The notes under the pieces were generated by a model. It was not told the origin of the DNA. It worked only from the letters and a program-made list of their open reading frames with translations, and made no database searches. A DNA stretch of 64,000 nt from Escherichia phage RB16: sequence record NC_014467.1; one strand, written 5' to 3'. Positions 3,150 to 56,928 of this stretch are shown in pieces. Numbering within the stretch: the first letter of the stretch is position 1; the number at the start of each line of letters is the position of its first letter. The position numbers were made by a program, and so were the translations under genes.

Positions 3150-3159
3150 TGTTTATATC

Positions 3160-3393: not shown

Positions 3394-3932
3394 TGTAACA
3401 CCTTCGCAAATTCCTGTGAAGTCAGTTTACGGGCAACTAAACGCCCTTTTGTTGATGCTTTATGGCCTACCATATACATCGTGGAAATGTTGCGTTTTCC
3501 TGATTGGATTTCATTATACATCTTTTCCGGCATGGTTGATTGATAAACTTCACCGTTTGATGTTTTCAGGAACATAGCATAAACATGGTCATCTTTCTTT
3601 TCGATGATTTCTTTTTCACGAACACGAACCTTAGACGATGTTGGTTTAGCACCCAATTCAATAGCCTTTCTTTGCCATACAGGTCCGTGTCCAGCACCAT
3701 AACCAACAAGGGCATGTGCGATTTCGTGCATAAGAGTATCCAAAATACAATCGTAGGTATCTTCTTCAACATGTTTCCGGCGTAACTGGATCTCTCTTTT
3801 GGAGTAACTGCAACAACCCAGAGTACGCTTGAAACGTCCGTTGATTTTGAAAGACCAATGAGATAAGCCATGCTTCGCCATGATGCTTTTGGCCCAAATG
3901 GTTATTTCCATATCGCTACGAGTTTTGAACAT
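3390..3932 (-). CDS. SprT-like zinc metalloprotease domain protein
   Basis: 180 aa; HEIAH (HExxH) motif with SprT-like N-terminal region; 4-nt overlap with downstream gene. Confidence 0.6.
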   Translation of the reverse strand: MFKTRSDMEITIWAKSIMAKHGLSHWSFKINGRFKRTLGCCSYSKREIQLRRKHVEEDTYDCILDTLMHEIAHALVGYGAGHGPVWQRKAIELGAKPTSSKVRVREKEIIEKKDDHVYAMFLKTSNGEVYQSTMPEKMYNEIQSGKRNISTMYMVGHKASTKGRLVARKLTSQEFAKVLQ

Positions 3933-3959
3933 TTTATATCCTCCCCAATCAGTGAGGAC

Positions 3960-3988
3960 ACTATAACAAAAAGCCTCCCGCGATGCAA
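3960..3988 (-). promoter_or_regulatory. sigma70-like promoter embedded in stem-loop (PeSL-like): -35 TTGCAT, 17-bp spacer, -10 TATAGT
   Basis: Read on minus strand; the -35 lies inside hairpin AGCCTC...GAGGCT followed by TTTTTGT; upstream of the SprT-like gene. Confidence 0.45.
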
Positions 3989-4004
3989 GAGGCTTTTTGT
4001 AAAT

Positions 4005-5294
4005 TTATTTCAATTTCTTCGAAAGTTCTTTCAAATCATTGAGATATTCAGTTTTCGGGGTCGTTTCTTCCCAGTATTTCAGTTGCTTACGCAGTTCATT
4101 CGCTTCGTCTTCCAGCTTTTGACGTTCATCCGTGGTTAAATGGTAGATGTTCATCGCAACCAGGATTTCGGCGTGGTTCTCGCAACCCGCCCACGTAGAG
4201 ACAAGTTTAACCGCTTCGCTGCGACTAAGCCCCTTCAATGCGTCAGGCTGTGCGATCATCTGGTCGATGAAGTCAACCTTCGCCAGCGCTTTATCTAACG
4301 CTTCCTTAGTCTCCTGGATGCGTTTATCAATACGCTGTTGGTAAACACCAATACGGATATCAACGAAGTCTTTCAGCAACGTTTCAGGCCGCTCGTATGA
4401 ATGCAGTTTCCCGTTAAAGATAACGTTGATGTTCGGGTTTGAGTTCTCAATCAATCCGAAATCTTTCAGGATCTTCTCACGGGTAAGCCCGTTTGCGTAC
4501 TCACGTTTCAGGGTGATTTCGTAGCGGAAATCTTCTTTCGATAGATCCTTATAGCTTACGATATACCCTTTCTCTTCCAGCTTATCCAGAATAGAAATAT
4601 ATTTCACGCGATCATACTTGACCGGAATCTCTGTGATCACCAGTTTGGTTTTACCCTGGAGTTCGTACTTGCCGTACATCGTACCGTTTTCAATGTCACC
4701 TTTGAAATGCGGGTATTTCAGATCCAGCGTGAAATCTTTCCCGTTCAGGTAACTAACGCATCCATTCAGAACCGATACCGGATCATGTGGTGGAATGTTG
4801 GTAGCGTATGCTTTCGCGATCCCGCTGAACCCGTTAACCAATACCATCGGAATGATAGGCAGATAATAGGCAGGCGGTACGTGTTCAGGGTCTTCATGCG
4901 GAAGAGTTAAATCTTCGTCCATGTAGATAGCCTTGAACAGCGGAGACAGCTTACATTTGATGTAACGCGGTGCGCCTGGCTTCTTAACCAGACGGGAACC
5001 AAAGAACCCATCACGTTCGAAAAGCGGGATGTTGTTGCACCAGTGCGCCGCCATGAGAGACAACGCTTCTTCAACGGATGTTTCCCCGTGGTGATAACCA
5101 TACATAGCAACACCGCCAGCGATAGAGGCTACTTTCTGGAAGCCTGTACCGCCTTTTGCAGCGGAATGTATGAAGAAACGGTGAACGGGTTTGAACCCGT
5201 CTACCAGGTGCGGGATCGCACGAGAATAAATTGTGTAAAGGGCAAACGTAAGCCCTTCAACCTGCACAACGTCTTTAATACTTCGTTCCATCAA
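4005..5294 (-). CDS. 52: DNA topoisomerase II medium subunit (GyrA-like, gp52)
   Basis: 429 aa; GyrA N-terminal-like sequence; size matches T4 gp52 (442 aa); adjacent to gp39. Confidence 0.8.
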   Translation of the reverse strand: MMERSIKDVVQVEGLTFALYTIYSRAIPHLVDGFKPVHRFFIHSAAKGGTGFQKVASIAGGVAMYGYHHGETSVEEALSLMAAHWCNNIPLFERDGFFGSRLVKKPGAPRYIKCKLSPLFKAIYMDEDLTLPHEDPEHVPPAYYLPIIPMVLVNGFSGIAKAYATNIPPHDPVSVLNGCVSYLNGKDFTLDLKYPHFKGDIENGTMYGKYELQGKTKLVITEIPVKYDRVKYISILDKLEEKGYIVSYKDLSKEDFRYEITLKREYANGLTREKILKDFGLIENSNPNINVIFNGKLHSYERPETLLKDFVDIRIGVYQQRIDKRIQETKEALDKALAKVDFIDQMIAQPDALKGLSRSEAVKLVSTWAGCENHAEILVAMNIYHLTTDERQKLEDEANELRKQLKYWEETTPKTEYLNDLKELSKKLK

Positions 5295-32503: not shown

Positions 32504-33523
32504 ATGAATTATGTGTTAATTGGCGATACACATGCAGGTCTTCGCCAGGATAACCCCTGGAACGAAGATAACCTGTATGAAGTATTCAAACAGATAGTAG
32601 CGTATTGCAAAGAACATGGGATCACTCGCGGTTTCCATGCGGGTGATTTCTTTGATGTTCGAAAAGCAACCACGCAGACAACGATGAATTTCGTTCGTGA
32701 AAAGCTGGTTCCTCTTCTGACTGAGGCTGGGATCGTTATCGATACTTTGGTTGGCAACCACGATTGCCAATTTAAAGACAAAATCCGGCCCAACGCGCCG
32801 CGCGAGATACTCAGTCAGTATGAATGCTTTAATGTCATCGACGAACCGACCACAGTCGATTTAGGCGGTGGAAAATCGATTGACCTGATCCCGTGGATTT
32901 GTCAGGAAAACAGTCATAGGATTTTCGAGTTTATCAAACAGTCAAAATCAAATTTCTGTCTGGGACACTTCGAACTTTCTGGTTACTATTTCTACAAAAA
33001 CAGTAAAGCGGATCACGGGCTTGAACCGGACTTCTTGAAAAAGTATGAACGCGTTTACTCTGGACACTATCACCATGCAAACGAAGGTGATAACGTGTTT
33101 TACATCGGTACACCGCTTACTATGAGCGCCAACGATGAAGACGAAACACGCGGGTTTTATGTGTTCACTGGTACGCCTGAATTAACGTTCATCGCTAACC
33201 CTGTCTGTCATCATCGCCGGATTTCATACCCAGCGCAGAAAGATGTTGATCTTGAACAATTCCGTAACTGTGCGGTACGTCTGATCGTCAGTGAGGTTGA
33301 TTCAAACCTTGCCAAGTTCCAAACCAAAATTGAAGAAATCGCCTACGAAATCAGTATCATTGACAACGTGAAAACTGATTCTGATGTGGATACCGATTTC
33401 GAAATTAAAACGGTTCGTGGGCTTATGGGTGAGTATGTCGCAAACATGCAGATCACCGATGACGAAAAAGAAGACGTTAATCGTATGATTAGCGAACTTT
33501 ACGCCGAGGTGTCTGGTGCATAG
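32504..33523 (+). CDS. 47: recombination endonuclease subunit (gp47, Mre11/SbcD-like)
   Basis: 339 aa; phosphoesterase motifs GDTHAG, GNHD, GHYHH. Confidence 0.85.
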   Translation: MNYVLIGDTHAGLRQDNPWNEDNLYEVFKQIVAYCKEHGITRGFHAGDFFDVRKATTQTTMNFVREKLVPLLTEAGIVIDTLVGNHDCQFKDKIRPNAPREILSQYECFNVIDEPTTVDLGGGKSIDLIPWICQENSHRIFEFIKQSKSNFCLGHFELSGYYFYKNSKADHGLEPDFLKKYERVYSGHYHHANEGDNVFYIGTPLTMSANDEDETRGFYVFTGTPELTFIANPVCHHRRISYPAQKDVDLEQFRNCAVRLIVSEVDSNLAKFQTKIEEIAYEISIIDNVKTDSDVDTDFEIKTVRGLMGEYVANMQITDDEKEDVNRMISELYAEVSGA

Positions 33524-33797
33524 CAGATATGAAAAATATTTCGGTGAGAACCCCCGATATTCTCACCTGTTGCGTATGCTGGGAATGAAACATATCATTG
33601 CCACTTCTGACGAAGCAGGGGAAACCAGCGCAGTTTGTTTGACCATCATGAAGGGTGCATGGCATTCATCACGAACATGGTCAATCTTCATGCTTGATAC
33701 ACTGGACGACGATACGCTATCATATACTATTGATTCATCGGTTGTTCAATTGATCACTGAATTATGTGAACGGATTTTAAATGAAACTAAAAACTAA
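33516..33797 (+). CDS. hypothetical protein (GTG start)
   Basis: 93 aa track ORF beginning on GTG; may be a remnant next to the homing endonuclease insertion. Confidence 0.25.
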   Translation: MHSRYEKYFGENPRYSHLLRMLGMKHIIATSDEAGETSAVCLTIMKGAWHSSRTWSIFMLDTLDDDTLSYTIDSSVVQLITELCERILNETKN

Positions 33798-34311
33798 ATC
33801 ACATGGAGGTGGAAACCGAACAATTGATGATGAAATTTCTTCAATAAATGAACTACTTCCTATGTTGGATGTTGATGTTGTATTAGGAAAGATATACTGG
33901 AAAAACTCACCTCGTAAGAGCGTCCCTGCTGGAACTGAAGCAGGGAGTAAGACAAAACATGGTTACGTTGCTATCGGGTATAAAAAGACGTATTATAGAC
34001 GACATCGAATAATATTTTACGTCGCTAATGGTTATCTTCCTCTCGTAGTAGATCACAAACACGGTGTTGAATCTGGTGATGGAATAGATAACCTGCAAGA
34101 CATCACGCAACAACAAAACTCCGTTAAAATGAGAATGAGTAGAAGGAATTCTTCTGGGTTTAGAGGGGTTTCCTTTCACCAAAAATCAGGAAAATGGCAA
34201 TCATGTATTGTGTATAATAGAAAAACAATATATCTTGGTTTGTATGAAACACCAGAACTTGCACATAGTGCATATACAGACAAGCGAAAAGAATTATTTG
34301 GTGAAATATGA
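33781..34311 (+). CDS. HNH-AP2 homing endonuclease (Mob-like)
   Basis: 176 aa; HNH_3-type core YLPLVVDHKHGVESGDGIDNL and AP2-type DNA-binding region GVSFHQKSGKWQSCI...YLGLYETPELAHSAY; inserted between gp47 and gp46. Confidence 0.7.
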   Translation: MKLKTKSHGGGNRTIDDEISSINELLPMLDVDVVLGKIYWKNSPRKSVPAGTEAGSKTKHGYVAIGYKKTYYRRHRIIFYVANGYLPLVVDHKHGVESGDGIDNLQDITQQQNSVKMRMSRRNSSGFRGVSFHQKSGKWQSCIVYNRKTIYLGLYETPELAHSAYTDKRKELFGEI

Positions 34312-36005
34312 AATTAAATTTCCGTAAAATTAAGTATCAAAACATCTTATCAGTGGGTAATACCCCGATCGAACTTGAATTCGATACTGCAAAGAAAACC
34401 CTGATCACGGGTAAAAATGGTGGTGGTAAATCCACACTGATCGAAGCGTTGACGTATGCTCTTTTTGGTAAATCATTTCGTGATTTAAAAGTCGGGCAAC
34501 TGGTAAACAGTGTCAACAAAAAGAAATGTCTGGTTGAACTGGATATTGAATACGGGAAAGATTCGTACAAAGTCGTTCGCGGACAAAAGCCGAAAGTATT
34601 CGAGATCTGGAAAAACGGTGATAAGTTAGCAGAAGATTCAGCAGCGGGTGATTATCAATCTCAGCTTGAATCCATGCTCAATATTAACCTGGTTGGATTC
34701 AAACAGGTAATCGTGTTGGGTACTGCTGGCTATACTCCATTCATGGAACTGAAAACACCGGATCGCCGTAAACTGGTTGAAGACCTGTTGTCGCTATCGG
34801 TTATCAGTGAAATGGATAAGCTGAACAAATCATATGTCCGTGGTGTTAATCAGCAGTTGGATACCCTGTCAATGCAGGTTAACCACATCCAGCAGCAGAT
34901 CGCTACACACCAGCGCTTCATTGATGAACAGCGAGCTAAAGCGAACCAGAACAACGCACGATACAAAGAGATCTACGATAGCCACGTTGAAACCGCTAAG
35001 AACATCAAAGCACAGCTTATGCAGTTGCAAGCGGAGATCGCAGAAACGGTGATCACTGGTGCAGACCGAACGGAAGATATAAACAAACTCCGTGATGGCT
35101 ATACGCGCCTCTCTATGACTGTAGAACAGTTTAAAAAGCTGGAAGTGATGTATCAGAAAGGTGGTGAGTGTCCGGCCTGTAAACAGGCGATTAAGCCCAC
35201 TCCTGAACGCATGGAAGAGATCGCAAACAACATCAAAGCGGGTACGCAACGATTAACGCTGATCAAAACCAAACAGGACGAGTTGCAAGGCATTATGAAC
35301 GAGTTGCTTCAACAGCAACGCGCACTGAATGCTATGAAAACGAAATACGAAGCCCTGAAAGGTACGCTGCAAAATGAAGTTGCCAACGCTAAACGCGCAC
35401 AAGCGATCATGGAACAGGCAAGCGCGGAAGTTGTTATTGATGAAGAACCTGTTAAGCAGTTACAACAACAGGAAGCAGATCTGAACGATAAACGTCAAGG
35501 ATATGTGAAAGAAAAATATATCCGTGGTATCGTTACAGATATGTTAAAAGATTCTGGTGTAAAAGCCAGCATCGTAAAACGTTATATCCCGTACTTCAAC
35601 AAGCAGATCGCATACTATCTGGATCTGTTGGGCGCTGACTACCAGTTCACTTTAGATGATGAATTCAACGAATCAATCAAATCACTGGGGCGCGATGATT
35701 TTAGTTACGCATCATTTAGCCAGGGTGAACGCGCACGAATCAACCTTGCGTTGCTTATGACCTGGCGTGATGTAACAAGTAAAGTTTCTGGTGTTGATTT
35801 ATCGCTTCTGGTACTAGATGAAATCTTTGATGGTGCAATGGATAAAGAAGGTGGATTTGCAGTCAGAGCATTACTGGATGATATTGAAGGTAATGTTATT
35901 GTAATCAGTCATCAGGATTTAGATCCACAAGAATTTCATCGACATATTGTTATGTCTAAAGTAGGGAGATTCACCAAATGCAAGATAGTAAACAATGATT
36001 ACTAA
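34308..36005 (+). CDS. 46: recombination endonuclease subunit (gp46, Rad50/SbcC-like ATPase)
   Basis: 565 aa; Walker A GKNGGGKST; coiled coil with zinc hook CPACK; Walker B/D-loop LLVLDE. Confidence 0.85.
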   Translation: MKLNFRKIKYQNILSVGNTPIELEFDTAKKTLITGKNGGGKSTLIEALTYALFGKSFRDLKVGQLVNSVNKKKCLVELDIEYGKDSYKVVRGQKPKVFEIWKNGDKLAEDSAAGDYQSQLESMLNINLVGFKQVIVLGTAGYTPFMELKTPDRRKLVEDLLSLSVISEMDKLNKSYVRGVNQQLDTLSMQVNHIQQQIATHQRFIDEQRAKANQNNARYKEIYDSHVETAKNIKAQLMQLQAEIAETVITGADRTEDINKLRDGYTRLSMTVEQFKKLEVMYQKGGECPACKQAIKPTPERMEEIANNIKAGTQRLTLIKTKQDELQGIMNELLQQQRALNAMKTKYEALKGTLQNEVANAKRAQAIMEQASAEVVIDEEPVKQLQQQEADLNDKRQGYVKEKYIRGIVTDMLKDSGVKASIVKRYIPYFNKQIAYYLDLLGADYQFTLDDEFNESIKSLGRDDFSYASFSQGERARINLALLMTWRDVTSKVSGVDLSLLVLDEIFDGAMDKEGGFAVRALLDDIEGNVIVISHQDLDPQEFHRHIVMSKVGRFTKCKIVNNDY

Positions 36006-36570
36006 AAACTGGGACGACGAATTTCAAGCCGAGATTCGTCGTCGGTTTTACCATGTAAACGGGGTTTTGTATCACAAGACGGAGAGTAAACAAACTGCTT
36101 TTTCTCCGGCGGGATACTATTTCAAACCTGGTGATATGGTGAAATGTCACAAAACTAGGAAAAAGACTCCATATTTACAGATTTGTATGCGATATGAAGG
36201 GAAGTCTAACTATCTATACGTACATAGGGTTGTGTGGTTTCTTGAATATGGGTATCAGGTTGATACGATCGACCATATCGATCTAAATCCTTTAAATAAT
36301 GATCCATCGAATCTTAGAGAAGCAAGCACACAGCAGAACCATTACAACAAAAATGGAAAACCTAACACTTCCTCCACTTACAAGGGTGTATCATGGGATA
36401 AATCAACTTGCAAATGGAAAGTGGGTATTCAGCATAATAAGAAAAAGATTCATTTAGGATATTTTGATGATGAAGTCGAAGCGGCTAAGGCATACGATGC
36501 AAAGGCAATTGAAATTGGTGGACAATATGCGAGGTTAAACTTCCATGATTATGTTAGAACGAGAATTTGA
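35995..36570 (+). CDS. HNH-AP2 homing endonuclease (Mob-like)
   Basis: 191 aa; HRVVW...IDHIDLNPLNNDPSNLR HNH_3 motif and AP2-like KGVSWDKSTCKWKVGI...LGYFDDEVEAAKAY. Confidence 0.7.
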   Translation: MITKNWDDEFQAEIRRRFYHVNGVLYHKTESKQTAFSPAGYYFKPGDMVKCHKTRKKTPYLQICMRYEGKSNYLYVHRVVWFLEYGYQVDTIDHIDLNPLNNDPSNLREASTQQNHYNKNGKPNTSSTYKGVSWDKSTCKWKVGIQHNKKKIHLGYFDDEVEAAKAYDAKAIEIGGQYARLNFHDYVRTRI

Positions 36571-36742
36571 ATTGATGACCTCTCCAGAAGCGGAGAGGTT
36601 TTATCTTCATAACGAACTGTTGGAAGAAAAACACGTTGTCTCTATGGAAGATGTCAAAGAAGCCTTTAAAGACAATCAGTTAGAGCTAACGCGAATACTG
36701 AATAATAAATCGTCTATGTGGTTTCTCGAAAAAATCTATTGA
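36545..36742 (+). CDS. hypothetical small protein
   Basis: 65 aa ORF overlapping the end of the endonuclease gene; weak. Confidence 0.25.
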   Translation: MIMLEREFELMTSPEAERFYLHNELLEEKHVVSMEDVKEAFKDNQLELTRILNNKSSMWFLEKIY

Positions 36743-40524: not shown

Positions 40525-42777
40525 ATGAGTGATATTAAAACAGTAGTAAAATCTTCTGGCGTAAGTCAGACATTTGAAAAAGAAAAACTGTTCAAAGTCC
40601 TTAATTGGGCGAGTGCTGGAAAGAATATTGATGTTAACGCATTCCTTGAAAATGTTGTTGACCTGCTTCGTGATGGTATGACTACCAAACAGATCCAGGC
40701 TGTAGCAATCAAGTATGCAGCGGATCGAATCTCCGTTAAAGAACCTGACTGGCAGTATGTAGCGGCTAACCTCGAAATGTTCGCCCTTCGTAAAACCGTT
40801 TACGGGCAGTTTGACCCGATCCCGTTCTACGAACACATCACTAAGCTGGTTGAGGCAGGAAAATACGATAAAGAAATCCTGACCAAATGGACTAAATCCG
40901 ATATCGAATATTTCGAAGAGAATATTAATCACGATAAAGATTTTGAATTCTCTTATGCTGGCGTTCAACAGTTGATCGGGAAATATCTGTTGCAGGATCG
41001 CACCAACGGCGATATCTACGAAACACCACAGTATGCATTCATGCTGATTGCGATGTGTTTACACCAGGATGAACCGCGCACCCTGTCGGCGTTTAATCAT
41101 GTGGTTGACTTCTATAACGCAATTTCGGATCGTAAACTGTCATTACCTACGCCTATTATGGCGGGTGTGCGTACTCCTACGCGTCAGTTCTCCAGTTGTG
41201 TTGTAATCGAATCTGGTGATTCTCTGGGTTCTCTGAACGCTGTTACGTCCGCGATCGTGAAATATATCTCTCAACGTGCGGGTATCGGTGTCAACGCCGG
41301 ACACATTCGCGCTATGGGTTCAAAAATCCGTGGTGGTGAAGCAGTCCATACAGGCGTTATCCCGTTCTGGAAACACATTCAGACGGCGGTTAAATCTTGT
41401 TCCCAGGGTGGCGTTCGTGGTGGTGCAGCAACCCTGTATTATCCGATCTGGCATCTTGAAGTTGAAAACCTGCTGGTTCTGAAAAATAACCGTGGCGTTG
41501 AAGAAAACCGTATTCGTCACCTGGACTATGGCGTACAGCTTAACGATTTGATGTATAAGCGTTTAATCAATAACGATTACATCACTCTGTTCAGCCCTGA
41601 CGTTGCGAATGATCGCCTCTATGACGCGTTCTATCAAGCGGATCAGACTGAGTTTGAAGAACTCTATACCAGTCTGGAAAAAGACCCAGCGGTACGCAAG
41701 AAACGTATTAAAGCGGTAGATCTGTTCCAGTTGCTTGTTCAGGAACGCGCACAGACCGGACGCAAATACATTTTCAACAGTCACCATGTAAACCAGCAGG
41801 GTAGTTTCTCTGTTCCGATTCGTATGTCGAACCTGTGCTGTGAAATCGCGATCCCAACTTCACCGCTGGATGATGATGATAAACTGGCTGGCGAAATTGG
41901 ACTGTGTACGCTTATGGCGATCGTTCTCGATAATGCCGATATAAGCGAATTCCCAGCCCTTACACGCATCGCAGTACGCGCACTGGATAACTTGCTGGAT
42001 TACCAGAACTACCCTGTTGCGGCGGCTCTGAAAGCCAAACAGCGTCGTTCTCTGGGTGTGGGTATCACCAACTATGCATCATGGCTGGCAAGCAACTATT
42101 GCGACTACTCCGAAGCATACGCCGGAAACGTTCATGAGTTGATGGAAGCGTTTCAATTTAACCTGCTGGTTGCCTCTATGGAACTCGCACAGGAACGCGG
42201 TGCATGTGGACTGTTCCACGAAACGAAATATGCACAAGGGCTGTTGCCTATTGACTGGTACTGCAAAAACGTTGATGAACTGGCATCACCTGTGTATAAC
42301 TGCGACTGGGAATGGTTACGCGGTGAAATCAAAAAACATGGCTTGCGTAACTCAACACTTTCTGCTTTAATGCCTTGTGAAAGTAGCTCACAGGTGAGTA
42401 ACTCAACCAACGGGATCGAACCTCCACGCGGCCCTGTGAGTGTGAAATCTTCTAAGGAAGGTTCATTCAATCAGGTAGTACCGAACCAGAATAATCAGAT
42501 TGACTTCTATGATTATCTCTGGACAATGGCAAAACGCGGAAATAAAGGTTATCTGGCTCACGTAGCGGTTATGCAGAAGTTTGTTGATCAGGCTATCTCT
42601 GCAAACACCAACTATGATCCGGCTAACTTCCCAGATGGTAAAGTGAAATCTGAAATCATCCTTGAAGATCTGCTGTATGCAAACTATTTCGGCATCAAAA
42701 CGCTGTACTACCACAACACCCGCGACGGTGCAGGTGAGGAAGAAGCGGAAGATTCATGTGAGGGATGCAAAATTTAA
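40525..42777 (+). CDS. nrdA: ribonucleoside-diphosphate reductase large subunit (class Ia)
   Basis: 750 aa; N-terminal ATP-cone; catalytic region NLCCEI; C-terminal Cys pair CEGCK. Confidence 0.9.
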   Translation: MSDIKTVVKSSGVSQTFEKEKLFKVLNWASAGKNIDVNAFLENVVDLLRDGMTTKQIQAVAIKYAADRISVKEPDWQYVAANLEMFALRKTVYGQFDPIPFYEHITKLVEAGKYDKEILTKWTKSDIEYFEENINHDKDFEFSYAGVQQLIGKYLLQDRTNGDIYETPQYAFMLIAMCLHQDEPRTLSAFNHVVDFYNAISDRKLSLPTPIMAGVRTPTRQFSSCVVIESGDSLGSLNAVTSAIVKYISQRAGIGVNAGHIRAMGSKIRGGEAVHTGVIPFWKHIQTAVKSCSQGGVRGGAATLYYPIWHLEVENLLVLKNNRGVEENRIRHLDYGVQLNDLMYKRLINNDYITLFSPDVANDRLYDAFYQADQTEFEELYTSLEKDPAVRKKRIKAVDLFQLLVQERAQTGRKYIFNSHHVNQQGSFSVPIRMSNLCCEIAIPTSPLDDDDKLAGEIGLCTLMAIVLDNADISEFPALTRIAVRALDNLLDYQNYPVAAALKAKQRRSLGVGITNYASWLASNYCDYSEAYAGNVHELMEAFQFNLLVASMELAQERGACGLFHETKYAQGLLPIDWYCKNVDELASPVYNCDWEWLRGEIKKHGLRNSTLSALMPCESSSQVSNSTNGIEPPRGPVSVKSSKEGSFNQVVPNQNNQIDFYDYLWTMAKRGNKGYLAHVAVMQKFVDQAISANTNYDPANFPDGKVKSEIILEDLLYANYFGIKTLYYHNTRDGAGEEEAEDSCEGCKI

Positions 42778-42806
42778 CGGAGAAGCCCCGAAAGGGGCTT
42801 TTTGAT

Positions 42807-43295
42807 ATGATAACACAATCGCGATTGAAAGAATTATTGACGTATGACAAAGAAACTGGTATTTTTCACTGGAAAGTAAAACTGAATAACAACCATGACA
42901 TAACAAAACCTGCTGGCGTTGTGTATGATGGATATGTTAGGATACAGGTAGACGGTAAAAAATATCGAGCGCACCGATTAGCGTGGTTGTATGTATATGG
43001 CTATATGCCAGAACTTATCGACCACAAAAACGGAATAACTACCGATAATTGGATAGATAATTTGCGGATTGCTTCATGCACTCAAAATCAATACAACAGC
43101 AAGATTCGAAAAGATAACACGTCTGGAATCAAAGGCGTTTCTTTTCATAAAAGAACTGGAAAATGGCAAGCAAAATGCCGTGTTGATGGAATAGTTCATT
43201 ATTTGGGATTATTCCACACAACAACCGAAGCCGAATCCGCTGTAATTGCGTTTCGACATAAACACCATCAAGAATATAGTAACGACGGGAAATAA
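42807..43295 (+). CDS. mobE: HNH-AP2 homing endonuclease between nrdA and nrdB (MobE position)
   Basis: HNH_3 motif HRLAW...IDHKNGITTDNWIDNLR and AP2-like GVSFHKRTGKWQAKC; T4 also carries mobE between nrdA and nrdB. Confidence 0.7.
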   Translation: MITQSRLKELLTYDKETGIFHWKVKLNNNHDITKPAGVVYDGYVRIQVDGKKYRAHRLAWLYVYGYMPELIDHKNGITTDNWIDNLRIASCTQNQYNSKIRKDNTSGIKGVSFHKRTGKWQAKCRVDGIVHYLGLFHTTTEAESAVIAFRHKHHQEYSNDGK

Positions 43296-43296
43296 T

Positions 43297-44472
43297 ATGC
43301 TTACAGTAATGAATACAAACCCAGATCACAAACACTTAGAACAGCCTATGTTCTTTGGCGAAGATACTGGGGTTGCGCGATACGAAGAACAAAAGCATCG
43401 TGTGTTTGAAAATCTTACGGAAAAACAGTTATCCTTCTTTTGGCGTCCAGAAGAAATTGACTTATCGATCGACCGTATGCAGTACGCGAAAATGCCGGAA
43501 CACGAAAAAATCATTTTCGATTCGAACCTGCAATATCAAACCCTGTTGGATACCATTCAGGGGCGCGGCCCTAACCTGGCTTTCCTCCCTATCGCTTCCG
43601 ATGTCTCGATGGAAACGTGGATCGAAACATGGGCGTTCAGTGAAACAATCCATAGCCGCAGTTATACGCACATTCAGCGCAACCTACACATCGACCCGTC
43701 AAAAGAGTTCGATAAAATTCTGCGCAACGAAGCGATCATGAAACGTTCGGCTTCCATGACAAAATACTACGATGACCTGATCGCAGAATGTCACGAACTG
43801 AAAAACATTGTGCTCAAAATCGAAATGTTAACGTCCCACGGATACCCAGACGAATCGATCGCAGAGTACGAAAAGAAACGCAAAGAGCAAATGCGTAAAT
43901 GTAAGATTGCTCTGTACCTGTGTATGCACGCTGTCAACGCTCTGGAAGCGATCCGCTTCTACGTGTCGTTTACCTTCACGTTCAACTTTGCCGAACAAGG
44001 TAAGATGGAAGGTAACGCGAAGATCATGCGTCTGATTGCCCGTGATGAAGCACTTCATCAGAAAGGTACTCAAAGCAAGATCCGACTCTGGCAAATGGGT
44101 AAAGACGACCCAGAAATGGCAGAAATCGCATTCCAGTATGAAGAGGAAGCGACACAGATTTTCCTTGAAGTATACGAACAGGAAAAAGAATGGGCTGAAC
44201 ACCTGTTCTCTATCGGTGACGTAGACGGCGTATCCCTGAAAAGTACGATCGCCTATATCGAACACCTGACGGATCAGCGTATGCGAGCGGTTGGCCTACA
44301 GTCTCCATTTAAACCTTCACCGAACCCGTATCCGTGGATGAATAAATGGTTGAAGTCAGACAACGTACAGGTAGCCCCGCAAGAGGTAGAAGTAAGTTCT
44401 TACCTGGTTGGCAACCTTAACACTGAGATCAGCGACGAAGCCTATGCAAAATGGCGACAAAAATACGCGTAA
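43297..44472 (+). CDS. nrdB: ribonucleoside-diphosphate reductase small subunit
   Basis: Start placed at MLTVMNTNPD; di-iron ligand helices (E...H, EALH) present; uninterrupted. Confidence 0.85.
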   Translation: MLTVMNTNPDHKHLEQPMFFGEDTGVARYEEQKHRVFENLTEKQLSFFWRPEEIDLSIDRMQYAKMPEHEKIIFDSNLQYQTLLDTIQGRGPNLAFLPIASDVSMETWIETWAFSETIHSRSYTHIQRNLHIDPSKEFDKILRNEAIMKRSASMTKYYDDLIAECHELKNIVLKIEMLTSHGYPDESIAEYEKKRKEQMRKCKIALYLCMHAVNALEAIRFYVSFTFTFNFAEQGKMEGNAKIMRLIARDEALHQKGTQSKIRLWQMGKDDPEMAEIAFQYEEEATQIFLEVYEQEKEWAEHLFSIGDVDGVSLKSTIAYIEHLTDQRMRAVGLQSPFKPSPNPYPWMNKWLKSDNVQVAPQEVEVSSYLVGNLNTEISDEAYAKWRQKYA

Positions 44473-44481
44473 GGACATAAC

Positions 44482-45039
44482 ATGATTGATGCGATTCCCG
44501 TTTATACGGGAGTCCATCACAATCTATACGCATACCTGGCGGGTTGTGTTGATTGTGATGGATGGATTAGTGAAAAAGGAAAGAATGGTTATCTGGTTGG
44601 GCTTACACAGCATATTCAACTATGGGATGATATGGTTAGCATTCAATCTGATTTGATTAACGATGGTGTTGATGCAAAATTATATGAAAGAACCAGTAGA
44701 ACAGGATTAGGTAATACGTTGATGTGCAACCTAATTATTCAAAAATCATCGGATCTCTTGATTCTGTTACCGAGAATCATTCCATACCTTCGATTTAAAA
44801 AGCAAAAAGCAGTTGACGCATATTTTAATTTGTGTAAACATTCAGATCTTAATGCAAGTTCATCCGATAATGATATGAAAGGAAGTAAACGAAAGTATTG
44901 GAAGCCGGAAGAAATATCCGAACTAATTCGTTTACATTCGGAGGGTTACAACAACCCAGCGATAGGGATTAAAATGAATCGTTCTACCGATTCAATAAGT
45001 CATAAGTTGCATCGGTTGGGTATCATGAGAAACGAATGA
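44482..45039 (+). CDS. LAGLIDADG-like endonuclease with C-terminal helix-turn-helix
   Basis: 185 aa; motif YLAGCVDCDGWIS fits LAGxxDxDG near the N-terminus; C-terminal sigma-region-4-like HTH. Confidence 0.5.
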   Translation: MIDAIPVYTGVHHNLYAYLAGCVDCDGWISEKGKNGYLVGLTQHIQLWDDMVSIQSDLINDGVDAKLYERTSRTGLGNTLMCNLIIQKSSDLLILLPRIIPYLRFKKQKAVDAYFNLCKHSDLNASSSDNDMKGSKRKYWKPEEISELIRLHSEGYNNPAIGIKMNRSTDSISHKLHRLGIMRNE

Positions 45040-45446
45040 TGGAATCGAAAGTTTATAGAATGTCTCTTGACAAATGCGGTCGAATAGACCGCAGTTTTAT
45101 CAAGTGTGGTGAGTTAAGAAATTGCGTTTACTGTATTGAAATCGACGGCGTGATCGTGTATGTTGGTAAAGCAAAAGACATGTGGAAGCGATTAGATACG
45201 TACAGGAATTCAAAATACTGGAGGGAAGCAAACCCCAGCAACATTTTGAAAACCGCACGTCTGGAAATGGCAATCAAAAAACGTAAGCGTGTGAATCTCA
45301 TTGTGACAACACACGACGAAAACACATATCATAATTTTGAAATAAACATGATCCGAAAAATTAATCCTGAATGGAATAAACAGCACTATGACAAAGCTAA
45401 CCAAAAACCAGAAAACACTCTTCAACCAATTAATGAAGTTGTGTAA
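45036..45446 (+). CDS. denA: endonuclease II (DenA, GIY-YIG family)
   Basis: 136 aa (same as T4 EndoII); VYVGKAKDMWKRLDTYR and C-terminal INPEWNKQH resemble T4 DenA. Confidence 0.7.
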   Translation: MMESKVYRMSLDKCGRIDRSFIKCGELRNCVYCIEIDGVIVYVGKAKDMWKRLDTYRNSKYWREANPSNILKTARLEMAIKKRKRVNLIVTTHDENTYHNFEINMIRKINPEWNKQHYDKANQKPENTLQPINEVV

Positions 45447-52995: not shown

Positions 52996-53219
52996 TGATG
53001 GGTTACGTGGTTTATTTCGATTGTTCGGATCTTGATCCGTTCGTTCTGCAACAGGCAAAGAAATATCATCAAGATATCACTGGTATCAGTGTCACGAACG
53101 ATGATATGCTGTGTATCGAATTTGATTATTATCGTACATTTGAGCGTGACAAATTCCTTGCGGATATTGAAGCGTTTAAGAGTACCCTTTTCTTTGATCG
53201 TTATGAGGTTAAATCTTGA
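52992..53219 (+). CDS. hypothetical protein
   Basis: 75 aa; 4-nt coupling. Confidence 0.4.
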   Translation: MMMGYVVYFDCSDLDPFVLQQAKKYHQDITGISVTNDDMLCIEFDYYRTFERDKFLADIEAFKSTLFFDRYEVKS

Positions 53220-53821
53220 AACCAGTTATTCTTACCGACATTGACGGGATCGCCGTAAAATGGCAGTCGGGGTTGCCGTTCTTTTTGTCTAAACACAACA
53301 TGCCGACCGATATCGCGCTGGATATGGTTACGGATGAAAAGTTCCGCGATATGACCGAAATCTTCGGGTGTGATCACCAACTGGCGAAAATTCTCATGGA
53401 AGAATACAACAACAGTTCGTTTATTCGCTATCTAAGCGCGTATGACGATGCGTTGATTGTGATCAACCGTCTGAAAGCAAAGTATGATTTCGTGGCTGTC
53501 ACGGCGCTGGGAACTACTCCTACGGCAAGCCTGAACCGTATTGCGAACCTGAACACGCTGTTCCCTTCTGCATTCAAAGAGGTTTGTGTTGTCGGTCACG
53601 GCGAAACGAAAGTACATCGTTACCTGGAAGCCAAAGCAAAATATGGCGATCGTTTAGTATGTTTCATTGATGACCTTGCAGTAAACTTGAATGAGTGTCA
53701 TAACGTCATCAGTCAGTTGCCGTTATTCCATATGTTGCGTGGCGAACGTAGTGAACCGAGTGTACCTCATACTAAAGTGAATAACTGGCATGAAATTGAA
53801 AAAGCAATTGAGAACTCTTGA
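53216..53821 (+). CDS. HAD-superfamily hydrolase, putative 5'(3')-deoxyribonucleotidase
   Basis: 201 aa; N-terminal DxDG motif (ILTDIDGI) and late DD motif (VCFIDDLAVN). Confidence 0.5.
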   Translation: MKPVILTDIDGIAVKWQSGLPFFLSKHNMPTDIALDMVTDEKFRDMTEIFGCDHQLAKILMEEYNNSSFIRYLSAYDDALIVINRLKAKYDFVAVTALGTTPTASLNRIANLNTLFPSAFKEVCVVGHGETKVHRYLEAKAKYGDRLVCFIDDLAVNLNECHNVISQLPLFHMLRGERSEPSVPHTKVNNWHEIEKAIENS

Positions 53822-54341
53822 TGAAGAAACGCAAGGTATAGAAAACCTACTACAATGTATTCGAGTAGAACCAGAAACCGGAAAATGTTTCTGGTTGGAA
53901 AAGAGAAGTAATAAAATTCCTGCTGGAAGTGAAGCAGGTTCTTTTCATAAATCAAGTGGATATACGCGAATAAAATTCGAAAATGCGATGTACATCCGGT
54001 CAAGGGTGATATTTTATTACGTTAATGGTTATCTTCCAGTGATGGTTGACCATGTTCACGGTGTTGAATGCGGTGATATGATTTCTAATCTAAGGGAGTC
54101 CAATCAGGTAACAAATCAACAAAACCGCACACGGAATAAAAATAATACCGTTGGGTTTAAGGGCGTGTCATTCAACAAGAAATCGCAAAAATATAGCGCC
54201 AAAATCACTTTACATGGAGTGACTAAGTGGTTAGGATTTTATGATTCTGCCGAGGAAGCAAGTGAAGCATATAAGGCCAAAGCACTCGTTTCCTTTACAC
54301 ATAATGAAAGGTACTTAAATGATCTTACAGATTCTGAATGA
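53790..54341 (+). CDS. HNH-AP2 homing endonuclease (Mob-like)
   Basis: 183 aa; YLPVMVDHVHGVECGDMISNL and GVSFNKKSQKYSAKI...WLGFYDSAEEASEAY; paralog of 33781..34311; inserted upstream of DNA ligase. Confidence 0.7.
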   Translation: MKLKKQLRTLDEETQGIENLLQCIRVEPETGKCFWLEKRSNKIPAGSEAGSFHKSSGYTRIKFENAMYIRSRVIFYYVNGYLPVMVDHVHGVECGDMISNLRESNQVTNQQNRTRNKNNTVGFKGVSFNKKSQKYSAKITLHGVTKWLGFYDSAEEASEAYKAKALVSFTHNERYLNDLTDSE

Positions 54342-55842
54342 ACTTGCTTCGACTCTGAAAACATCAGAGAAAGAAGCGATCCTTAAACGTAATGCAGGTA
54401 ATGACCTGCTGAAAGAGATTTTCCGCATTACGTACACGAAACAGATTATGTTTCACATCAAGAAGTTCCCGCAGGTTGACGGGAAGCCAGGCACAACACC
54501 GCTATCGAATGCTATCGCGGATTTAATGTCTGATCTGGCAACGCGGAAGTATACAGGCAATGCAGCCCGTGATCGTCTTCTGGATATCGTTTCATCGGTA
54601 AACGAAAACGACCGCGAAGTGTTACGCCGTATCATTAATCGCGATCTGGAATGTGGTGCTGGTACAACGTTACCGAACCGAGTATGGAAGAAACTCATTC
54701 CAGAACAGCCCCAGTGCCTCGCTACGCCGTTCAGTGAGAAAGCCTTAAAACGTATTCGCTTCCCTGCTTACTCTCAGCTTAAAGCCGATGGTGCGCGTTG
54801 TATGTCCGATCTGTTAGAAGACAAGATCCGCAAAGCATCCCGCGCGGGGAATGAGTATGAAGGTTTATTGAATCTGGACAAGGGTCTGAAAAAGATTCGT
54901 GAATATCTGGGTTATGATGTTGTACTTGATGGAGAACTGATTTATGTCCCTGCTGAAAAAACTGCTGTCGTTCCTTCAAACAGCGTTCCATTTAGTCTTG
55001 CTGGGTTTATGGGCGATGACGACGATTCTGTTTCTGACCTTGTGGCAGATGTTAGGCGGGAAGCTACCGAGAACGAGACACAAGCGGAAGCGAAACGCGA
55101 AGAGGGCAACGGGATTGTAAACAAATCCCTGAAAGGTACTATCAGCGACGAAGAACAGCGCAATATCGTTTATGTTGTCTGGGATATCGTACCGTATGAA
55201 GTATACTATGGTGATGCTCCGAGTGTTCAGCCATATTGCGATCGTTTCTCTATTCTGGAAGGTGCGCTGGCTGGCTCTGGTGTAACGTCAGTTAAGCTGA
55301 TCCCTTCTATCCTGGTGCAGAACTACGCGGAAGCGAAAAAGGATTACAACAATTACCGAAATGAAGGTAAAGAGGGTTCAATCCTGAAAAACGTTGATTT
55401 CAAATGGAAAGATTCACGCGTTGCGGATCAGGTGAAGTTGAAGAACAAAACCCCGATTGAACTGCGAATCATCGACGTGTACGAACACACCAAAGAAGCT
55501 CATAAGGTCGGAGGGTTCGTGGTTGAGGACTTATCAGGAGAAGCCAGAACAAACACAGGTTCCGGTCTGACTGATACGGACTACCGATACGATGAAGACG
55601 GTATTAACCGCGTGTACATCCCGTTAGAAGAACGTGGTGAACTGGATCGCGAATACATCATGGCGAACAAAGATGACTATATCGGCGCTATCGTCGAAAT
55701 GGAAGTTGACGGACTCCAGAAGTCTAAAACGCGTAAGAAGGGCGAACCTGAGTTCAGTTTCTTCTTGCCAATCATCAAGAAGATCCGACGCGATAAGACC
55801 GAACCGGATGATATTCACGTTATCTTCGCTGATCTGTTTTAA
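54319..55842 (+). CDS. 30: ATP-dependent DNA ligase (gp30)
   Basis: 507 aa; N-terminus MILQILNELAS parallels T4 ligase; adenylation motif KADGAR; motifs DGELIY and EG.ILK. Confidence 0.85.
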   Translation: MILQILNELASTLKTSEKEAILKRNAGNDLLKEIFRITYTKQIMFHIKKFPQVDGKPGTTPLSNAIADLMSDLATRKYTGNAARDRLLDIVSSVNENDREVLRRIINRDLECGAGTTLPNRVWKKLIPEQPQCLATPFSEKALKRIRFPAYSQLKADGARCMSDLLEDKIRKASRAGNEYEGLLNLDKGLKKIREYLGYDVVLDGELIYVPAEKTAVVPSNSVPFSLAGFMGDDDDSVSDLVADVRREATENETQAEAKREEGNGIVNKSLKGTISDEEQRNIVYVVWDIVPYEVYYGDAPSVQPYCDRFSILEGALAGSGVTSVKLIPSILVQNYAEAKKDYNNYRNEGKEGSILKNVDFKWKDSRVADQVKLKNKTPIELRIIDVYEHTKEAHKVGGFVVEDLSGEARTNTGSGLTDTDYRYDEDGINRVYIPLEERGELDREYIMANKDDYIGAIVEMEVDGLQKSKTRKKGEPEFSFFLPIIKKIRRDKTEPDDIHVIFADLF

Positions 55843-55896: not shown

Positions 55897-55933
55897 ACAA
55901 ACATCGAAACGAAACAGACAAAAGGAACATCCC

Positions 55934-56206
55934 ATGCAAATCACTAAAGAACTCGAAGGCAAAGTAATCGTTCTGGTAAATGAAGACCGTTTGGCACAAC
56001 TGGGTAACGGTGGTGAAAAACTGCCAGCGGACGCACTCGAAAGCCTTTCTAAAATGCGCGTGATGCGTGTTACTGACGGTTGGGTTACTTGTCTGCCTCT
56101 GAACGACGAAGACAAAGCCGTATACGATGCACAAGCGGATTCATGGGATATCGAAGTACCTCTGGTAAACATCGAAGTTGAAGAGTGCTACGAAATCGAA
56201 AAATAA
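55934..56206 (+). CDS. hypothetical protein
   Basis: 90 aa; RBS AAGGAAC; first gene downstream of PeSL cassette. Confidence 0.45.
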   Translation: MQITKELEGKVIVLVNEDRLAQLGNGGEKLPADALESLSKMRVMRVTDGWVTCLPLNDEDKAVYDAQADSWDIEVPLVNIEVEECYEIEK

Positions 56207-56208
56207 TG

Positions 56209-56238
56209 CTTGCTTCCTGGGTAATGTAGTGGTACATT
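56209..56238 (+). promoter_or_regulatory. sigma70-like promoter: -35 TTGCTT (aATGCTTGCtt), 18-bp spacer, -10 TACATT, within 10-bp perfect hairpin GGGTAATGTA...TACATTACCC
   Basis: Followed by 5'UTR ATATCGAAACGAAAGGAG shared with the PeSL copies. Confidence 0.4.
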
Positions 56239-56267
56239 ACCCATATCGAAACGAAAGGAGAAACATC

Positions 56268-56447
56268 ATGAAAATTATGCACACTGCAAATCAACTTCAA
56301 AACGGCAACTACGCTATCCACGATGCTATCGGTGCGCTGGTTGGGGTTTATCTTCATGGTATCAAACTCCTTGAAGTAAGTGGGAATACCTTTTATGGTG
56401 TTGAAAACATCGAAGCAGCGATGGAAATTATCGGTGACCTGAAATGA
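56268..56447 (+). CDS. hypothetical small protein
   Basis: 59 aa from MKIMHTANQ; RBS AAGGAG. Confidence 0.4.
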   Translation: MKIMHTANQLQNGNYAIHDAIGALVGVYLHGIKLLEVSGNTFYGVENIEAAMEIIGDLK

Positions 56448-56635
56448 GTAAGAAACTCGAAATATTCGAAACTATCAGCGAAGACCCTAATCATCGCTGG
56501 TGCTGTGCGAAAACTGGTTTTGATGCTGCATGGGGTGATACTCCAGAACAGGCGCGTAAAAACTGGGAACACCAACAATTGTTTTTTGCCTGTCGGGTTC
56601 CTACCAATTATGAGGGGAGTCAATTGTTAGCATGA
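56444..56635 (+). CDS. hypothetical protein
   Basis: 63 aa; 4-nt coupling. Confidence 0.4.
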   Translation: MSKKLEIFETISEDPNHRWCCAKTGFDAAWGDTPEQARKNWEHQQLFFACRVPTNYEGSQLLA

Positions 56636-56928
56636 AAAATAAAGAATATGACCCAATAGAAGTTAAAGAGCGGTTATCGGTAGCAAGAAGATTCCTTGAA
56701 TCTATCGACCCTGATAAACTTGGAAAATGCCCTGATACGATTTGCCTTAATTGTGGGCGATCCGTAATGGTTGGAAAGTGCTGTGATAATCAGAATATCG
56801 TTATCATGGACAGGAAAGAAGTTTCACCGGAAGTGTGGGATCGGATTCAAGAGATCATCAAAAACCCACCTGAACCGACGAAACGTTTACGCGAACTTAT
56901 GAGCAGGAAACCACGTTATGAAAAATGA
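56632..56928 (+). CDS. hypothetical protein with Cys-rich putative zinc-binding motif
   Basis: 98 aa; CPDTICLNCG...GKCCD. Confidence 0.4.
   Translation: MKNKEYDPIEVKERLSVARRFLESIDPDKLGKCPDTICLNCGRSVMVGKCCDNQNIVIMDRKEVSPEVWDRIQEIIKNPPEPTKRLRELMSRKPRYEK

Follow-up and report, generated by a model that had tools for sequence, protein, structure and literature searches.

Four putative free-standing HNH-AP2 homing endonuclease genes at conserved-gene junctions of Escherichia phage RB16

Four intact open reading frames, here called HEG1 to HEG4, lie on the + strand of the 64-kb window, the whole stretch of Escherichia phage RB16 DNA that was analysed, at the coordinates given for them in a preliminary description of this DNA. 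Each encoded protein is an exact full-length amino acid match to an annotated RB16 HNH(AP2) protein:

33781..34311, + strand: HEG1, 176 aa, with an N-terminal beta region, HNH_3 (aa 72-114) and AP2 (aa 125-174); RB16 HNH(AP2) 1, ADJ55358.1, UniProt Q4TZV2
35995..36570, + strand: HEG2, 191 aa, with HNH_3 (aa 75-116) and AP2 (aa 129-176); RB16 HNH(AP2) 2, ADJ55360.1, UniProt Q4TZV1
42807..43295, + strand: HEG3, 162 aa, with HNH_3 and AP2; RB16 HNH(AP2) 3, ADJ55368.1, UniProt Q4TZV0
53790..54341, + strand: HEG4, 183 aa, inserted in the 3' end of a HAD-like gene; RB16 HNH(AP2) 4, ADJ55390.1, UniProt Q4TZU9

The four genes are real, ordinary and already annotated in RB16 as putative homing endonucleases, and are not new. 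Discussion of the HNH-AP2 class dates back to 2004-2010 and extends to a proposal that the plant AP2 domain descends from it. Magnani, Sjolander and Hake as well as Wuitschick and colleagues reportedly dealt with this homing endonuclease class in 2004, and Petrov and colleagues are said to have given, in J Mol Biol in 2006, what is probably the first description of the RB16 genes. The presence of the class in RB16, RB43 and RB49 was reported in 2006 and 2010 (PMC1524935, PMC2993671, PMC3861415), with a count of six such genes for RB16 (PMC2993671, Table 5). In the papers searched, none of the four proteins is the subject of a biochemical or genetic experiment. The genes have little significance as a discovery; the maps of the junctions, the islands of near identity and the estimates of selection presented here add descriptive detail and leave the annotation unchanged.

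The four proteins are related to one another at 30-42% amino acid identity (BLASTP, pairwise E about 1e-12 to 1e-42), far beyond chance, and tblastn found exactly four copies, with no fifth, in the 64-kb window; the other mid-sized ORFs scanned there (10) encode SprT-like, exonuclease, methyltransferase, gp45, gp59, dCMP deaminase and similar proteins. At least two sub-lineages can be told apart, HEG1 with HEG4 versus HEG2, while HEG3 is nearest to Felixounavirus-type copies (~48%). All four match PHROG_99, 'HNH endonuclease' (E 1e-50 to 5e-68). In Pfam, where the curated cut-offs are 24.8 bits for HNH_3 and 33.3 bits for AP2, the HNH_3 scores of HEG1 to HEG4 are 29.7, 47.0, 47.6 and 19.2 bits, placing HEG1-3 above the cut-off and HEG4 below, yet HEG4 is a paralogue of HEG1 at E 2e-42 and matches PHROG_99 at 1.4e-51. 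The AP2 scores (28.8, 31.4, 20.0 and 21.9 bits) are all under the cut-off, with E values of 2e-7 to 8e-4. A profile built from the four proteins matches the AP2 domain of WRI1 (E 1.3e-8), TEM1 (3e-5) and ERF096 (1e-3) and also I-HmuI (1u3e, E 1.1e-5); a search of NCBIfam gave no matching model. Profile matches to both HNH and AP2 are thus at hand, and the two-domain build proposed in the preliminary description is borne out by Pfam, PHROG and structure-profile matches, as is its family of four free-standing paralogues at conserved-gene junctions by BLASTP, the profiles and the same-site distribution described below.

The four paralogues, and likewise 10 aligned sequences, are without variation at D91, H92, N104 and N113 (HEG1 numbering), residues that align to D74, H75, N87 and N96 of I-HmuI, in the structure of which we take D-H to be the general base, one N to be structural and the other to be metal-binding. 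The catalytic and metal-binding residues of the HNH motif are present in all four proteins, and nuclease activity is predicted. With respect to the C-terminal domain, an AF2 model from the 10-sequence alignment reaches a mean pLDDT of 56.6, of which the HNH half is unreliable (pLDDT <50 over aa 37-102) and the AP2 part alone is interpreted (block-mean pLDDT 84-89 over aa 111-150). This part consists of strands 111-114, 119-126 and 129-136 and a helix 139-153, superposes on AtERF1 (1gcc) with an rmsd of 1.5 A over 52 columns, and has TEM1 and AtERF1 as top Foldseek matches (probability 1.00, with weak E values of 0.015-0.09). The C-terminal domain is of the AP2/ERF type, as judged from its similarity to solved AP2 domains and from its predicted fold of a three-stranded sheet plus helix.

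Known HNH-AP2 proteins of RB49, RB43, Felix O1-like and Xanthomonas phages have the same architecture, HNH followed by one AP2 in a free-standing gene product of ~160-190 aa, and tblastn identifies homologues with <60% identity to the HEGs in 1,100-3,500 phage records. The nicking enzyme I-HmuI of Bacillus phage SPO1 (1U3E) is alike in its N-terminal beta region and HNH core (E 1.1e-5), but is intron-encoded and possesses a helical/HTH C-terminal DNA-binding part, whereas the RB16 HEGs are free-standing with an AP2 C-terminus; strand-specific nicking is a feature of I-HmuI that for the RB16 proteins can only be presumed. The C-terminal ~55 aa of the HEGs resemble plant AP2/ERF domains (AtERF1, 1GCC; WRI1, 7WQ5; TEM1, 7ET4; E 1e-8 to 2e-2), which are located in nuclease-less transcription factors, while in RB16 the domain is fused to HNH and presumably serves target recognition. 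T4 MobA-MobE fill the same niche, being free-standing HNH enzymes at nrd and replication junctions with intronless homing (PMC2988022, PMC2790892), and the nrdA/nrdB junction harbours mobE in T4 and HEG3 in RB16. Membership of the HEGs in the Mob family was considered and rejected, as HEG2 and a MobE-like protein of Lw1 compare at E 0.47 and the Pfam families differ, the Lw1 protein matching HNH PF01844 and zinc ribbons but neither HNH_3 nor AP2.

Among 128-173 flank-matching records, HEG1, HEG2, HEG3 and HEG4 occur in 3, 21, 4 and 13, always at the same junction, and empty sites are found in RB43, Lw1, KPN-12i, PF-CE2 and Nando; rather than carrying the same ORFs at the same positions throughout, most relatives are without them. 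Compared with the empty alleles, the insert boundaries were located to a precision of between a few bases and about 10 nt. The neighbouring genes are intact with their ends alone rewritten, and each HEG is an ORF of its own between genes, outside an intron or intein. We consider it very likely that the four ORFs are paralogous free-standing HNH-AP2 homing endonuclease genes, selfish DNA at the junctions of conserved genes for replication, recombination and nucleotide metabolism.

The surroundings of HEG1 are as follows:

32504..33523, + strand: gp47 recombination nuclease subunit, flank of HEG1, after the annotation of homologues in Lw1, RB43 and UPEC03
33516..33797, + strand: small ORF of 93 aa, RB43ORF054w homologue, without a Pfam match
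34308..36005, + strand: gp46 recombination nuclease subunit, flank of HEG1 and HEG2
33545..34343, no strand assigned: HEG1 island of ~0.8 kb comprising a variant ORF054w-like allele, HEG1 and the first ~35 nt of gp46, a putative co-conversion tract

HEG1 is located between the ORF054w-like small ORF and gp46, overlapping the former by 17 nt and the latter by 4 nt (ATGA). That it splits a usually adjacent gp47/gp46 pair, as previously supposed, does not hold, since a 91-aa ORF (RB43ORF054w) is already positioned between the two genes in HEG-less RB43 and Lw1. The gene occupies the former gp46 start: the sequence of its MKL codons corresponds by homology to where gp46 begins in HEG-less alleles. 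At the right-hand end of the insert a new ATG restores the gp46 start and overlaps the HEG1 stop. Three records carry HEG1 at >=99% amino acid identity. Compared with UPEC03, HEG1 shows 0/531 nucleotide differences between flanks with a dS of 0.89 (gp47) and 1.06 (gp46), and identity over the island is 94-100% versus 80-90% outside (sliding window; alleles aligned to HEG-less Lw1 and RB43).

At HEG4 the features are:

53216..53821, + strand: HAD-like gene, flank of HEG4 (Miller annotation, junction analysis)
54319..55842, + strand: DNA ligase, gp30-like, flank of HEG4
53570..54300, no strand assigned: HEG4 island of ~0.73 kb comprising the 3' third of the HAD-like gene and HEG4

The overlaps of HEG4 amount to 32 nt with the HAD-like gene and 23 nt with the ligase. 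In HEG4-positive alleles the C-terminus of the HAD-like protein is rewritten (...WHEIEKAIENS versus ...WFEIEEKLNDLTDSK), and the last residues of HEG4, LNDLTDSE, are the old HAD-like tail, which carries the overlapping ligase start (junctions compared with Nando). HEG4 differs in 2/552 nt from the copies of Slopekvirus R2_1 and of UPEC03, the R2_1 ligase being at a dS of 1.36. Island identity is 94-100% for R2_1 and 100% for Miller, outside of which it is 67-88% and 65-97%, respectively; a strongly diverged block, 53750-53800, lies within the island beside the insertion. With 12 records at >=98.9% amino acid identity plus one at 78%, the cassette is near-identical across Escherichia, Klebsiella, Citrobacter, Cronobacter and Enterobacter phages.

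The common denominator of HEG1 and HEG4 is an island of near identity of about 0.73-0.8 kb that reaches about 220-240 bp upstream, which, with diverged flanks, is as expected for co-conversion in intronless homing. Comparison with relatives shows that at least these two genes moved between phages very recently. That the cassettes were exchanged laterally is proven by the two islands, a proof that does not extend to the encoded enzyme as the cause. The data offer a clear natural case of cassettes with a free-standing HEG crossing phage genera and hosts. That the four genes are stranded relics instead, inactive former HEGs with a patchiness due to independent losses from an ancestor with all four, seems very improbable. 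Gain and loss are inseparable in the HEG2 and HEG3 data, but loss is unable to yield the 0/531 and 2/552 nucleotide differences amid flanks with a dS of about 1; moreover, none of the four ORFs is disrupted, their catalytic residues are invariant, and dN/dS is 0.05-0.06 for HEG2 and HEG3.

A recent duplication within the RB16 genome as the origin of HEG1 and HEG4, suggested previously because the two begin identically, is scarcely credible. The MKLK start is indeed common to both; the second motif differs, reading VPAGTEAGS versus IPAGSEAGS and thus conforming to PAG(T/S)EAGS, and the two are mutually closest paralogues in the window. However, they share 42% amino acid identity, at the nucleotide level they match best over 69 nt, at 75%, and the MKL codons of HEG1 lie, as mentioned, on gp46-start sequence. 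In other phages, near-identical orthologues of each occupy the respective site, and a copy ~49% identical to HEG4 is found at a third site, the nrdB/denA junction, in GAP161, leE and PF-CE2. Cumulatively, the 42% identity, the own-site orthologues and the third-site copy indicate that HEG1 and HEG4 belong to an old, dispersed subfamily.

HEG2 follows gp46 and precedes one further gene:

36545..36742, + strand: gene 45.2 homologue (RB43 and Lw1 annotation; Pfam Gp45_2 at E 1.2e-3, below threshold)

The overlaps are 11 nt with gp46 and 26 nt with gene 45.2, and HEG2 stands in for the last ~23 nt of gp46 present in the empty RB43 allele, by which the C-terminal tail of gp46 is altered. Homologues at 73-87% amino acid identity occur in 21 records, of which 20 are Slopekvirus at the same site (86-87%). 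HEG2 is found at one site in two phage genera. In comparison with Matisse its dS is 1.53, like that of the flanks, and its dN/dS is 0.05 versus 0.087 for gp46. An identity island was not seen around HEG2, the divergence of which is in step with that of its flanks, hence there is no sign of current mobility. As the gene was kept at the gp46/45.2 junction throughout a divergence of RB16 from the Klebsiella Slopekviruses that reached saturation at synonymous sites, under purifying selection of gp46 strength, HEG2 may conceivably be an HNH-AP2 protein domesticated for the benefit of the phage and not a continual re-invader, although we hold this to be unlikely. If true, its role could be, for example, to exclude competing relatives, or its activity could be tied to the gp46/47 nuclease.

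The broader proposition that one or more of the four genes, with HEG2 as the best candidate, are kept for phage benefit and not through homing, as an AP2-type DNA-binding regulator or as a nuclease that excludes the markers of co-infecting relatives or partners gp46/47, is quite improbable. It draws on the same saturation, low dN/dS and shared site without an island. On the other hand, HEG2 is still sporadic (21 records versus about 128-173 related ones) and lacking in RB43, Lw1 and UPEC03, in which the gp46/45.2 site is either empty or taken up by an unrelated MobE-like gene; the catalytic HNH residues are preserved; repeated homing cycles likewise maintain purifying selection; and marker exclusion is a by-product of homing and no alternative to it (PMC2988022).

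The fourth locus, that of HEG3, comprises:

40525..42777, + strand: nrdA, flank of HEG3
42785..42803, + strand: terminator-like hairpin 3' of nrdA, GCCCC-GAAA-GGGGC followed by T5 (from the sequence and an alignment with KPN-12i and RB43)
43297..44472, + strand: nrdB, flank of HEG3, starting at the ATG used in relatives

The hairpin is retained in HEG-bearing and HEG-less alleles, and the HEG3 ATG is located 3 nt past the T run; an alternative in-frame ATG at 42765 would give a 176-aa HEG3 reading through the nrdA terminator hairpin. Started at 42807, HEG3 overlaps neither neighbour, and the apparent overlap with nrdB is due to an upstream TTG, as the nrdB ATG of relatives is the equivalent of 43297. 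The overlap with neighbouring reading frames that had been ascribed to all four genes therefore applies to HEG1, HEG2 and HEG4 and not to HEG3. Boundaries of the insert were mapped against HEG-less KPN-12i, PF-CE2 and RB43. Copies at 98% amino acid identity are in four records representing two phages only, GAP161 and leE; dN/dS is 0.06, and the comparison with leE is uninformative on co-conversion because the flanks are also 95-100% identical. The 3' end of HEG3 may supply the ribosome-binding site for nrdB, as read by eye and unscored.

The inserts, as seen at HEG1, HEG3 and HEG4, are placed so that their neighbours stay expressed. From one relative to another, the gp46/45.2 and nrdB/denA junctions are occupied by endonuclease genes that are unrelated. 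Upon mixed infection with a HEG-less relative, binding would be through the AP2 domain and the N-terminal beta region, at a site of the HEG-less allele close to the junction; the HNH site, which is beta-beta-alpha-metal and I-HmuI-like (D-H...N...N), would introduce a nick or cut in that DNA, and recombination-dependent phage repair would copy the HEG together with adjacent donor sequence into the broken genome, which amounts to intronless homing with co-conversion. In this sequence of events we infer the nuclease activity, the nick versus the double-strand cut, the target sequences and the AP2 domain as DNA recogniser; free-standing HEG behaviour and nicking by Mob and I-HmuI enzymes have been described (PMC2988022, PMC2790892). 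The mapped empty alleles in RB43, Lw1, Nando and KPN-12i are possible substrates for a first enzyme assay of a phage HNH-AP2 protein.

With respect to expression signals, the T4 late promoter TATAAATA has 0 matches in the 64-kb window, and a scan for sigma-70-like promoters gave 31 sites versus 31.2 expected, no better than shuffles. The start of HEG1 repeats the gp46 start in 10/11 nt, a background frequency of 0.5% among 60 gene starts. A general rule that each HEG begins with a repeat of the downstream gene's start is not claimed, as significance is restricted to HEG1/gp46: HEG2 and gene 45.2 have four leading matches (about 2% background, marginal), and the repeats of HEG3 and HEG4, 7/11 nt at about 25% background, are not significant. 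'Start-codon capture' beside essential genes may be a general habit of the HNH-AP2 clade, a weaker point than the domestication of HEG2. On either side of the leE copy in the nrdB/denA slot, an 11/11-nt repeat was noticed by eye at the junction, unscored.

The four HNH-AP2 homing endonuclease genes, here HEG1 to HEG4, are by exact-sequence look-up identical to 'RB16 HNH(AP2) 1', '2', '3' and '4' of Escherichia phage RB16:

33781-34311, + strand: HEG1, intact ORF, 176 aa; RB16 HNH(AP2) 1, ADJ55358.1
35995-36570, + strand: HEG2, intact ORF, 191 aa; RB16 HNH(AP2) 2, ADJ55360.1
42807-43295, + strand: HEG3, intact ORF, 162 aa (176 aa from an in-frame ATG upstream at 42765); RB16 HNH(AP2) 3, ADJ55368.1
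53790-54341, + strand: HEG4, intact ORF, 183 aa; RB16 HNH(AP2) 4, ADJ55390.1

AP2-HNH mobile elements have been noted in RB43 and RB49 (Nolan et al., 2006; PMC1524935), the genomes of RB16 and RB43 have been described as rich in the HNH-AP2 class with six and three such homing endonuclease genes, respectively (Petrov et al., 2010; PMC2993671), and phages of the RB43 group carry 1-6 such genes each, with zero in Lw1 (Kushkina et al., 2013; PMC3861415). As both the class and the RB16 genes are thus present in the literature and annotation, HEG1-4 are a rediscovery of known genes. They are a real, well-formed feature, and the core interpretation of the preliminary description is correct.

The two-domain build assigned to the four intact ORFs is borne out by profile matches and paralogy. 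HNH_3 precedes AP2 in all four proteins (Pfam), with HNH_3 scores of 29.7, 47.0, 47.6 and 19.2 bits for HEG1 to HEG4 (cut-off 24.8), while the AP2 matches, at 20-31 bits, are sub-threshold in 4/4 (cut-off 33.3). All four match PHROG_99 'HNH endonuclease' (E 1e-50 to 5e-68) and are paralogs with 30-42% pairwise identity (E 1e-13 to 2e-42); a tblastn search across the whole window found just these four and no fifth copy. A recent duplication of HEG1 and HEG4, as had been proposed, finds no support in an amino acid identity of 42% and the absence of extended nucleotide similarity.

The N-terminal half of the four-protein profile matches the HNH homing endonuclease I-HmuI (1u3e; E 1.1e-5), and the equivalents of I-HmuI D74, H75, N87 and N96 are invariant in HEG1-4 and in a 10-sequence alignment; the histidine of the DH motif is H92 in HEG1. 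The profile also matches the AP2 domains of WRI1 (E 1.3e-8), TEM1 and ERF096. An AF2 model of HEG3 rests on a shallow alignment and is of poor overall quality (mean pLDDT 56.6); its C-terminal domain, of three strands and a helix, is modelled with confidence (block-mean pLDDT 84-89, aa 111-150) and fits onto AtERF1 with 1.5 A over 52 columns. Homology suggests an I-HmuI-like active site made up of the HNH motif and the beta region at the N-terminus, with the AP2 domain probably taking the place of the C-terminal DNA-binding module of I-HmuI.

The phage collection searched leaves out RB16 itself; its nearest records are Lw1 (~95%), followed by RB43 and Miller (~91%) and by Pseudotevenviruses of Enterobacter, Cronobacter and Klebsiella. 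Set against the 128-173 records that match the HEG-flanking genes, each HEG is sporadic among relatives at a constant site: HEG1 occurs with at least 99% amino acid identity in 3 records (phi5, UPEC03, EC-F1), HEG2 homologues in 20 Slopekvirus records (86-87%) and one more (73%), HEG3 in just two phages, GAP161 and leE (98%), and HEG4 in 12 records (at least 98.9%) and one further (78%). 

Such a patchy distribution could also derive from losses out of a HEG-carrying ancestor. The decisive observation for mobility is the contrast between HEG and flank within the same genome pairs, with HEG1 showing 0/531 nucleotide differences to UPEC03 against a dS of 0.89 for gp47 and 1.06 for gp46, and HEG4 showing 2/552 differences to the Klebsiella Slopekvirus R2_1 against a dS of 1.36 for the adjoining ligase. 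In sliding identity, islands of 94-100% at ~33545-34343 and ~53570-54300 rise from a background of 67-90%; each takes in 220-240 bp of sequence ahead of the HEG and stops sharply close to the 3' end of the gene. In allele alignments for HEG1 and HEG4, the HEG-positive phages have in common their own variant of the gene segment upstream. Ancestral loss cannot account for these islands. They are the pattern expected from intronless homing, where the break occurs some way off the HEG and the donor sequence in between is co-converted (PMC2988022). The cleavage target is predicted in the HEG-less version of the conserved neighbour gene; for HEG1 and HEG4 it would be situated either close to the left island ends (~33545-33600 and ~53570-53600) or in a diverged block at 53750-53800. 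The substitutions that mark HEG-positive alleles are candidate immunity changes. The comparisons show recent lateral cassette movement across phages of Escherichia, Klebsiella, Citrobacter, Cronobacter and Enterobacter and across two phage genera.

HEG2 departs from this pattern: it has diverged from its Matisse homologue like its flanks (dS 1.53), with a dN/dS of 0.05 versus 0.087 for gp46, and is a long-standing resident subject to purifying selection. HEG2 is the one gene of the four for which domestication is conceivable; since its distribution remains sporadic, the data can be explained without it. For HEG3, dN/dS versus leE is 0.06, and as the flanks are equally similar this comparison is silent on transfer.

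The boundaries of all four inserts were set by comparison with relatives having empty sites; RB43 is empty at gp47|gp46, gp46|45.2 and nrdA|nrdB, Lw1 at gp47|gp46, KPN-12i at nrdA|nrdB, and Nando between the HAD-like gene and the ligase. HEG1 had been thought to split an adjacent gp47/gp46 pair; in HEG-less RB43 and Lw1, a 91-aa ORF (RB43ORF054w) that follows gp47 and overlaps the gp46 GTG start already intervenes, so that the two genes are not adjacent even without a HEG. The window has HEG1 inserted between its RB43ORF054w-like ORF and gp46. The HEG1 start, ATGAAACTAAA, occupies the gp46-start sequence of empty alleles (GTGAAACTAAAC), and a second copy, ATGAAATTAAA, now serves as the gp46 start, overlapping the stop codon of HEG1 (ATGA). 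A repeat of 10/11 is rare among gene-start pairs of the window (0.5%), and it is significant there for HEG1 only. In leE (2980-3519), an HNH-AP2 gene fills the nrdB|denA slot between 11-nt direct repeats, ATAAAATGAAA (found by eye, unscored), which constitute the denA ribosome-binding site and start and resemble the start repeat of HEG1 and gp46 (33781, 34308). The resemblance suggests a HEG sub-lineage that may insert precisely where the next gene downstream has its start codon.

Where RB43 has the last ~23 nt of gp46, the window has HEG2; the gp46 tail consequently differs between alleles. The 3' end of HEG2 overlaps the start of gene 45.2. The gp46|45.2 junction (window 35972-36544) is empty in RB43 and holds, in Lw1 (3431-4203) and UPEC03, an oppositely oriented MobE-like HNH gene of 236 aa, which as a candidate relative of HEG2 proved unrelated (E 0.47). 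The junction is an insertion hotspot common to unrelated endonuclease genes.

A terminator-like hairpin follows nrdA at 42785-42803. HEG3 starts 3 nt past its T run and stops 1 nt short of the nrdB ATG (43297), where empty alleles have just ~13 nt, including the nrdB ribosome-binding site; mobE occupies the analogous nrdA|nrdB junction in T4 (PMC2988022). HEG4 is inserted within the 3' end of the HAD-like gene, the C-terminus of which is re-written in HEG4-positive alleles. The last residues of HEG4, LNDLTDSE, are the former tail of the HAD-like gene in frame and contain the overlapping ligase start. Just ahead of the insert, ~50 nt (53750-53800) differ strongly from empty alleles amid DNA that is 95-97% identical. 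Where the HAD-like gene begins, EC-F1 (820-1310; ~53219 in the window) has a ~490-bp insertion annotated as a 171-aa hypothetical ORF, which is absent from the window and Nando.

The T4 late-promoter consensus TATAAATA has 0 occurrences in the 64 kb window (chance expectation 2.4). Between nrdB and denA resides a fifth mobile-looking ORF, unrelated to the four (44482-45039, + strand, 185 aa). RB16p066 and RB43ORF066w have the identical sequence, and sub-threshold matches of the ORF are to LAGLIDADG_3 (E 1.4e-3) and HTH_38 (E 9e-5); an island of 100% identity to RB43 (~44450-45250; flanks 82-95%) spans it. The same slot is empty in KPN-12i; in leE (Pfam-checked), GAP161 and PF-CE2 (tblastn) it is filled by an HNH-AP2 gene ~49% identical to HEG4. 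Behind the ligase, itself ~51-87% identical to that of Slopekvirus R2_1, the stretch 55900-56650 shows 93-100% (mostly 99-100%) identity to this phage and, judged by sequence similarity, may be another exchanged cassette; R2_1 has an additional Pfam-negative ORF of 189 aa between the ligase and the equivalent stretch.
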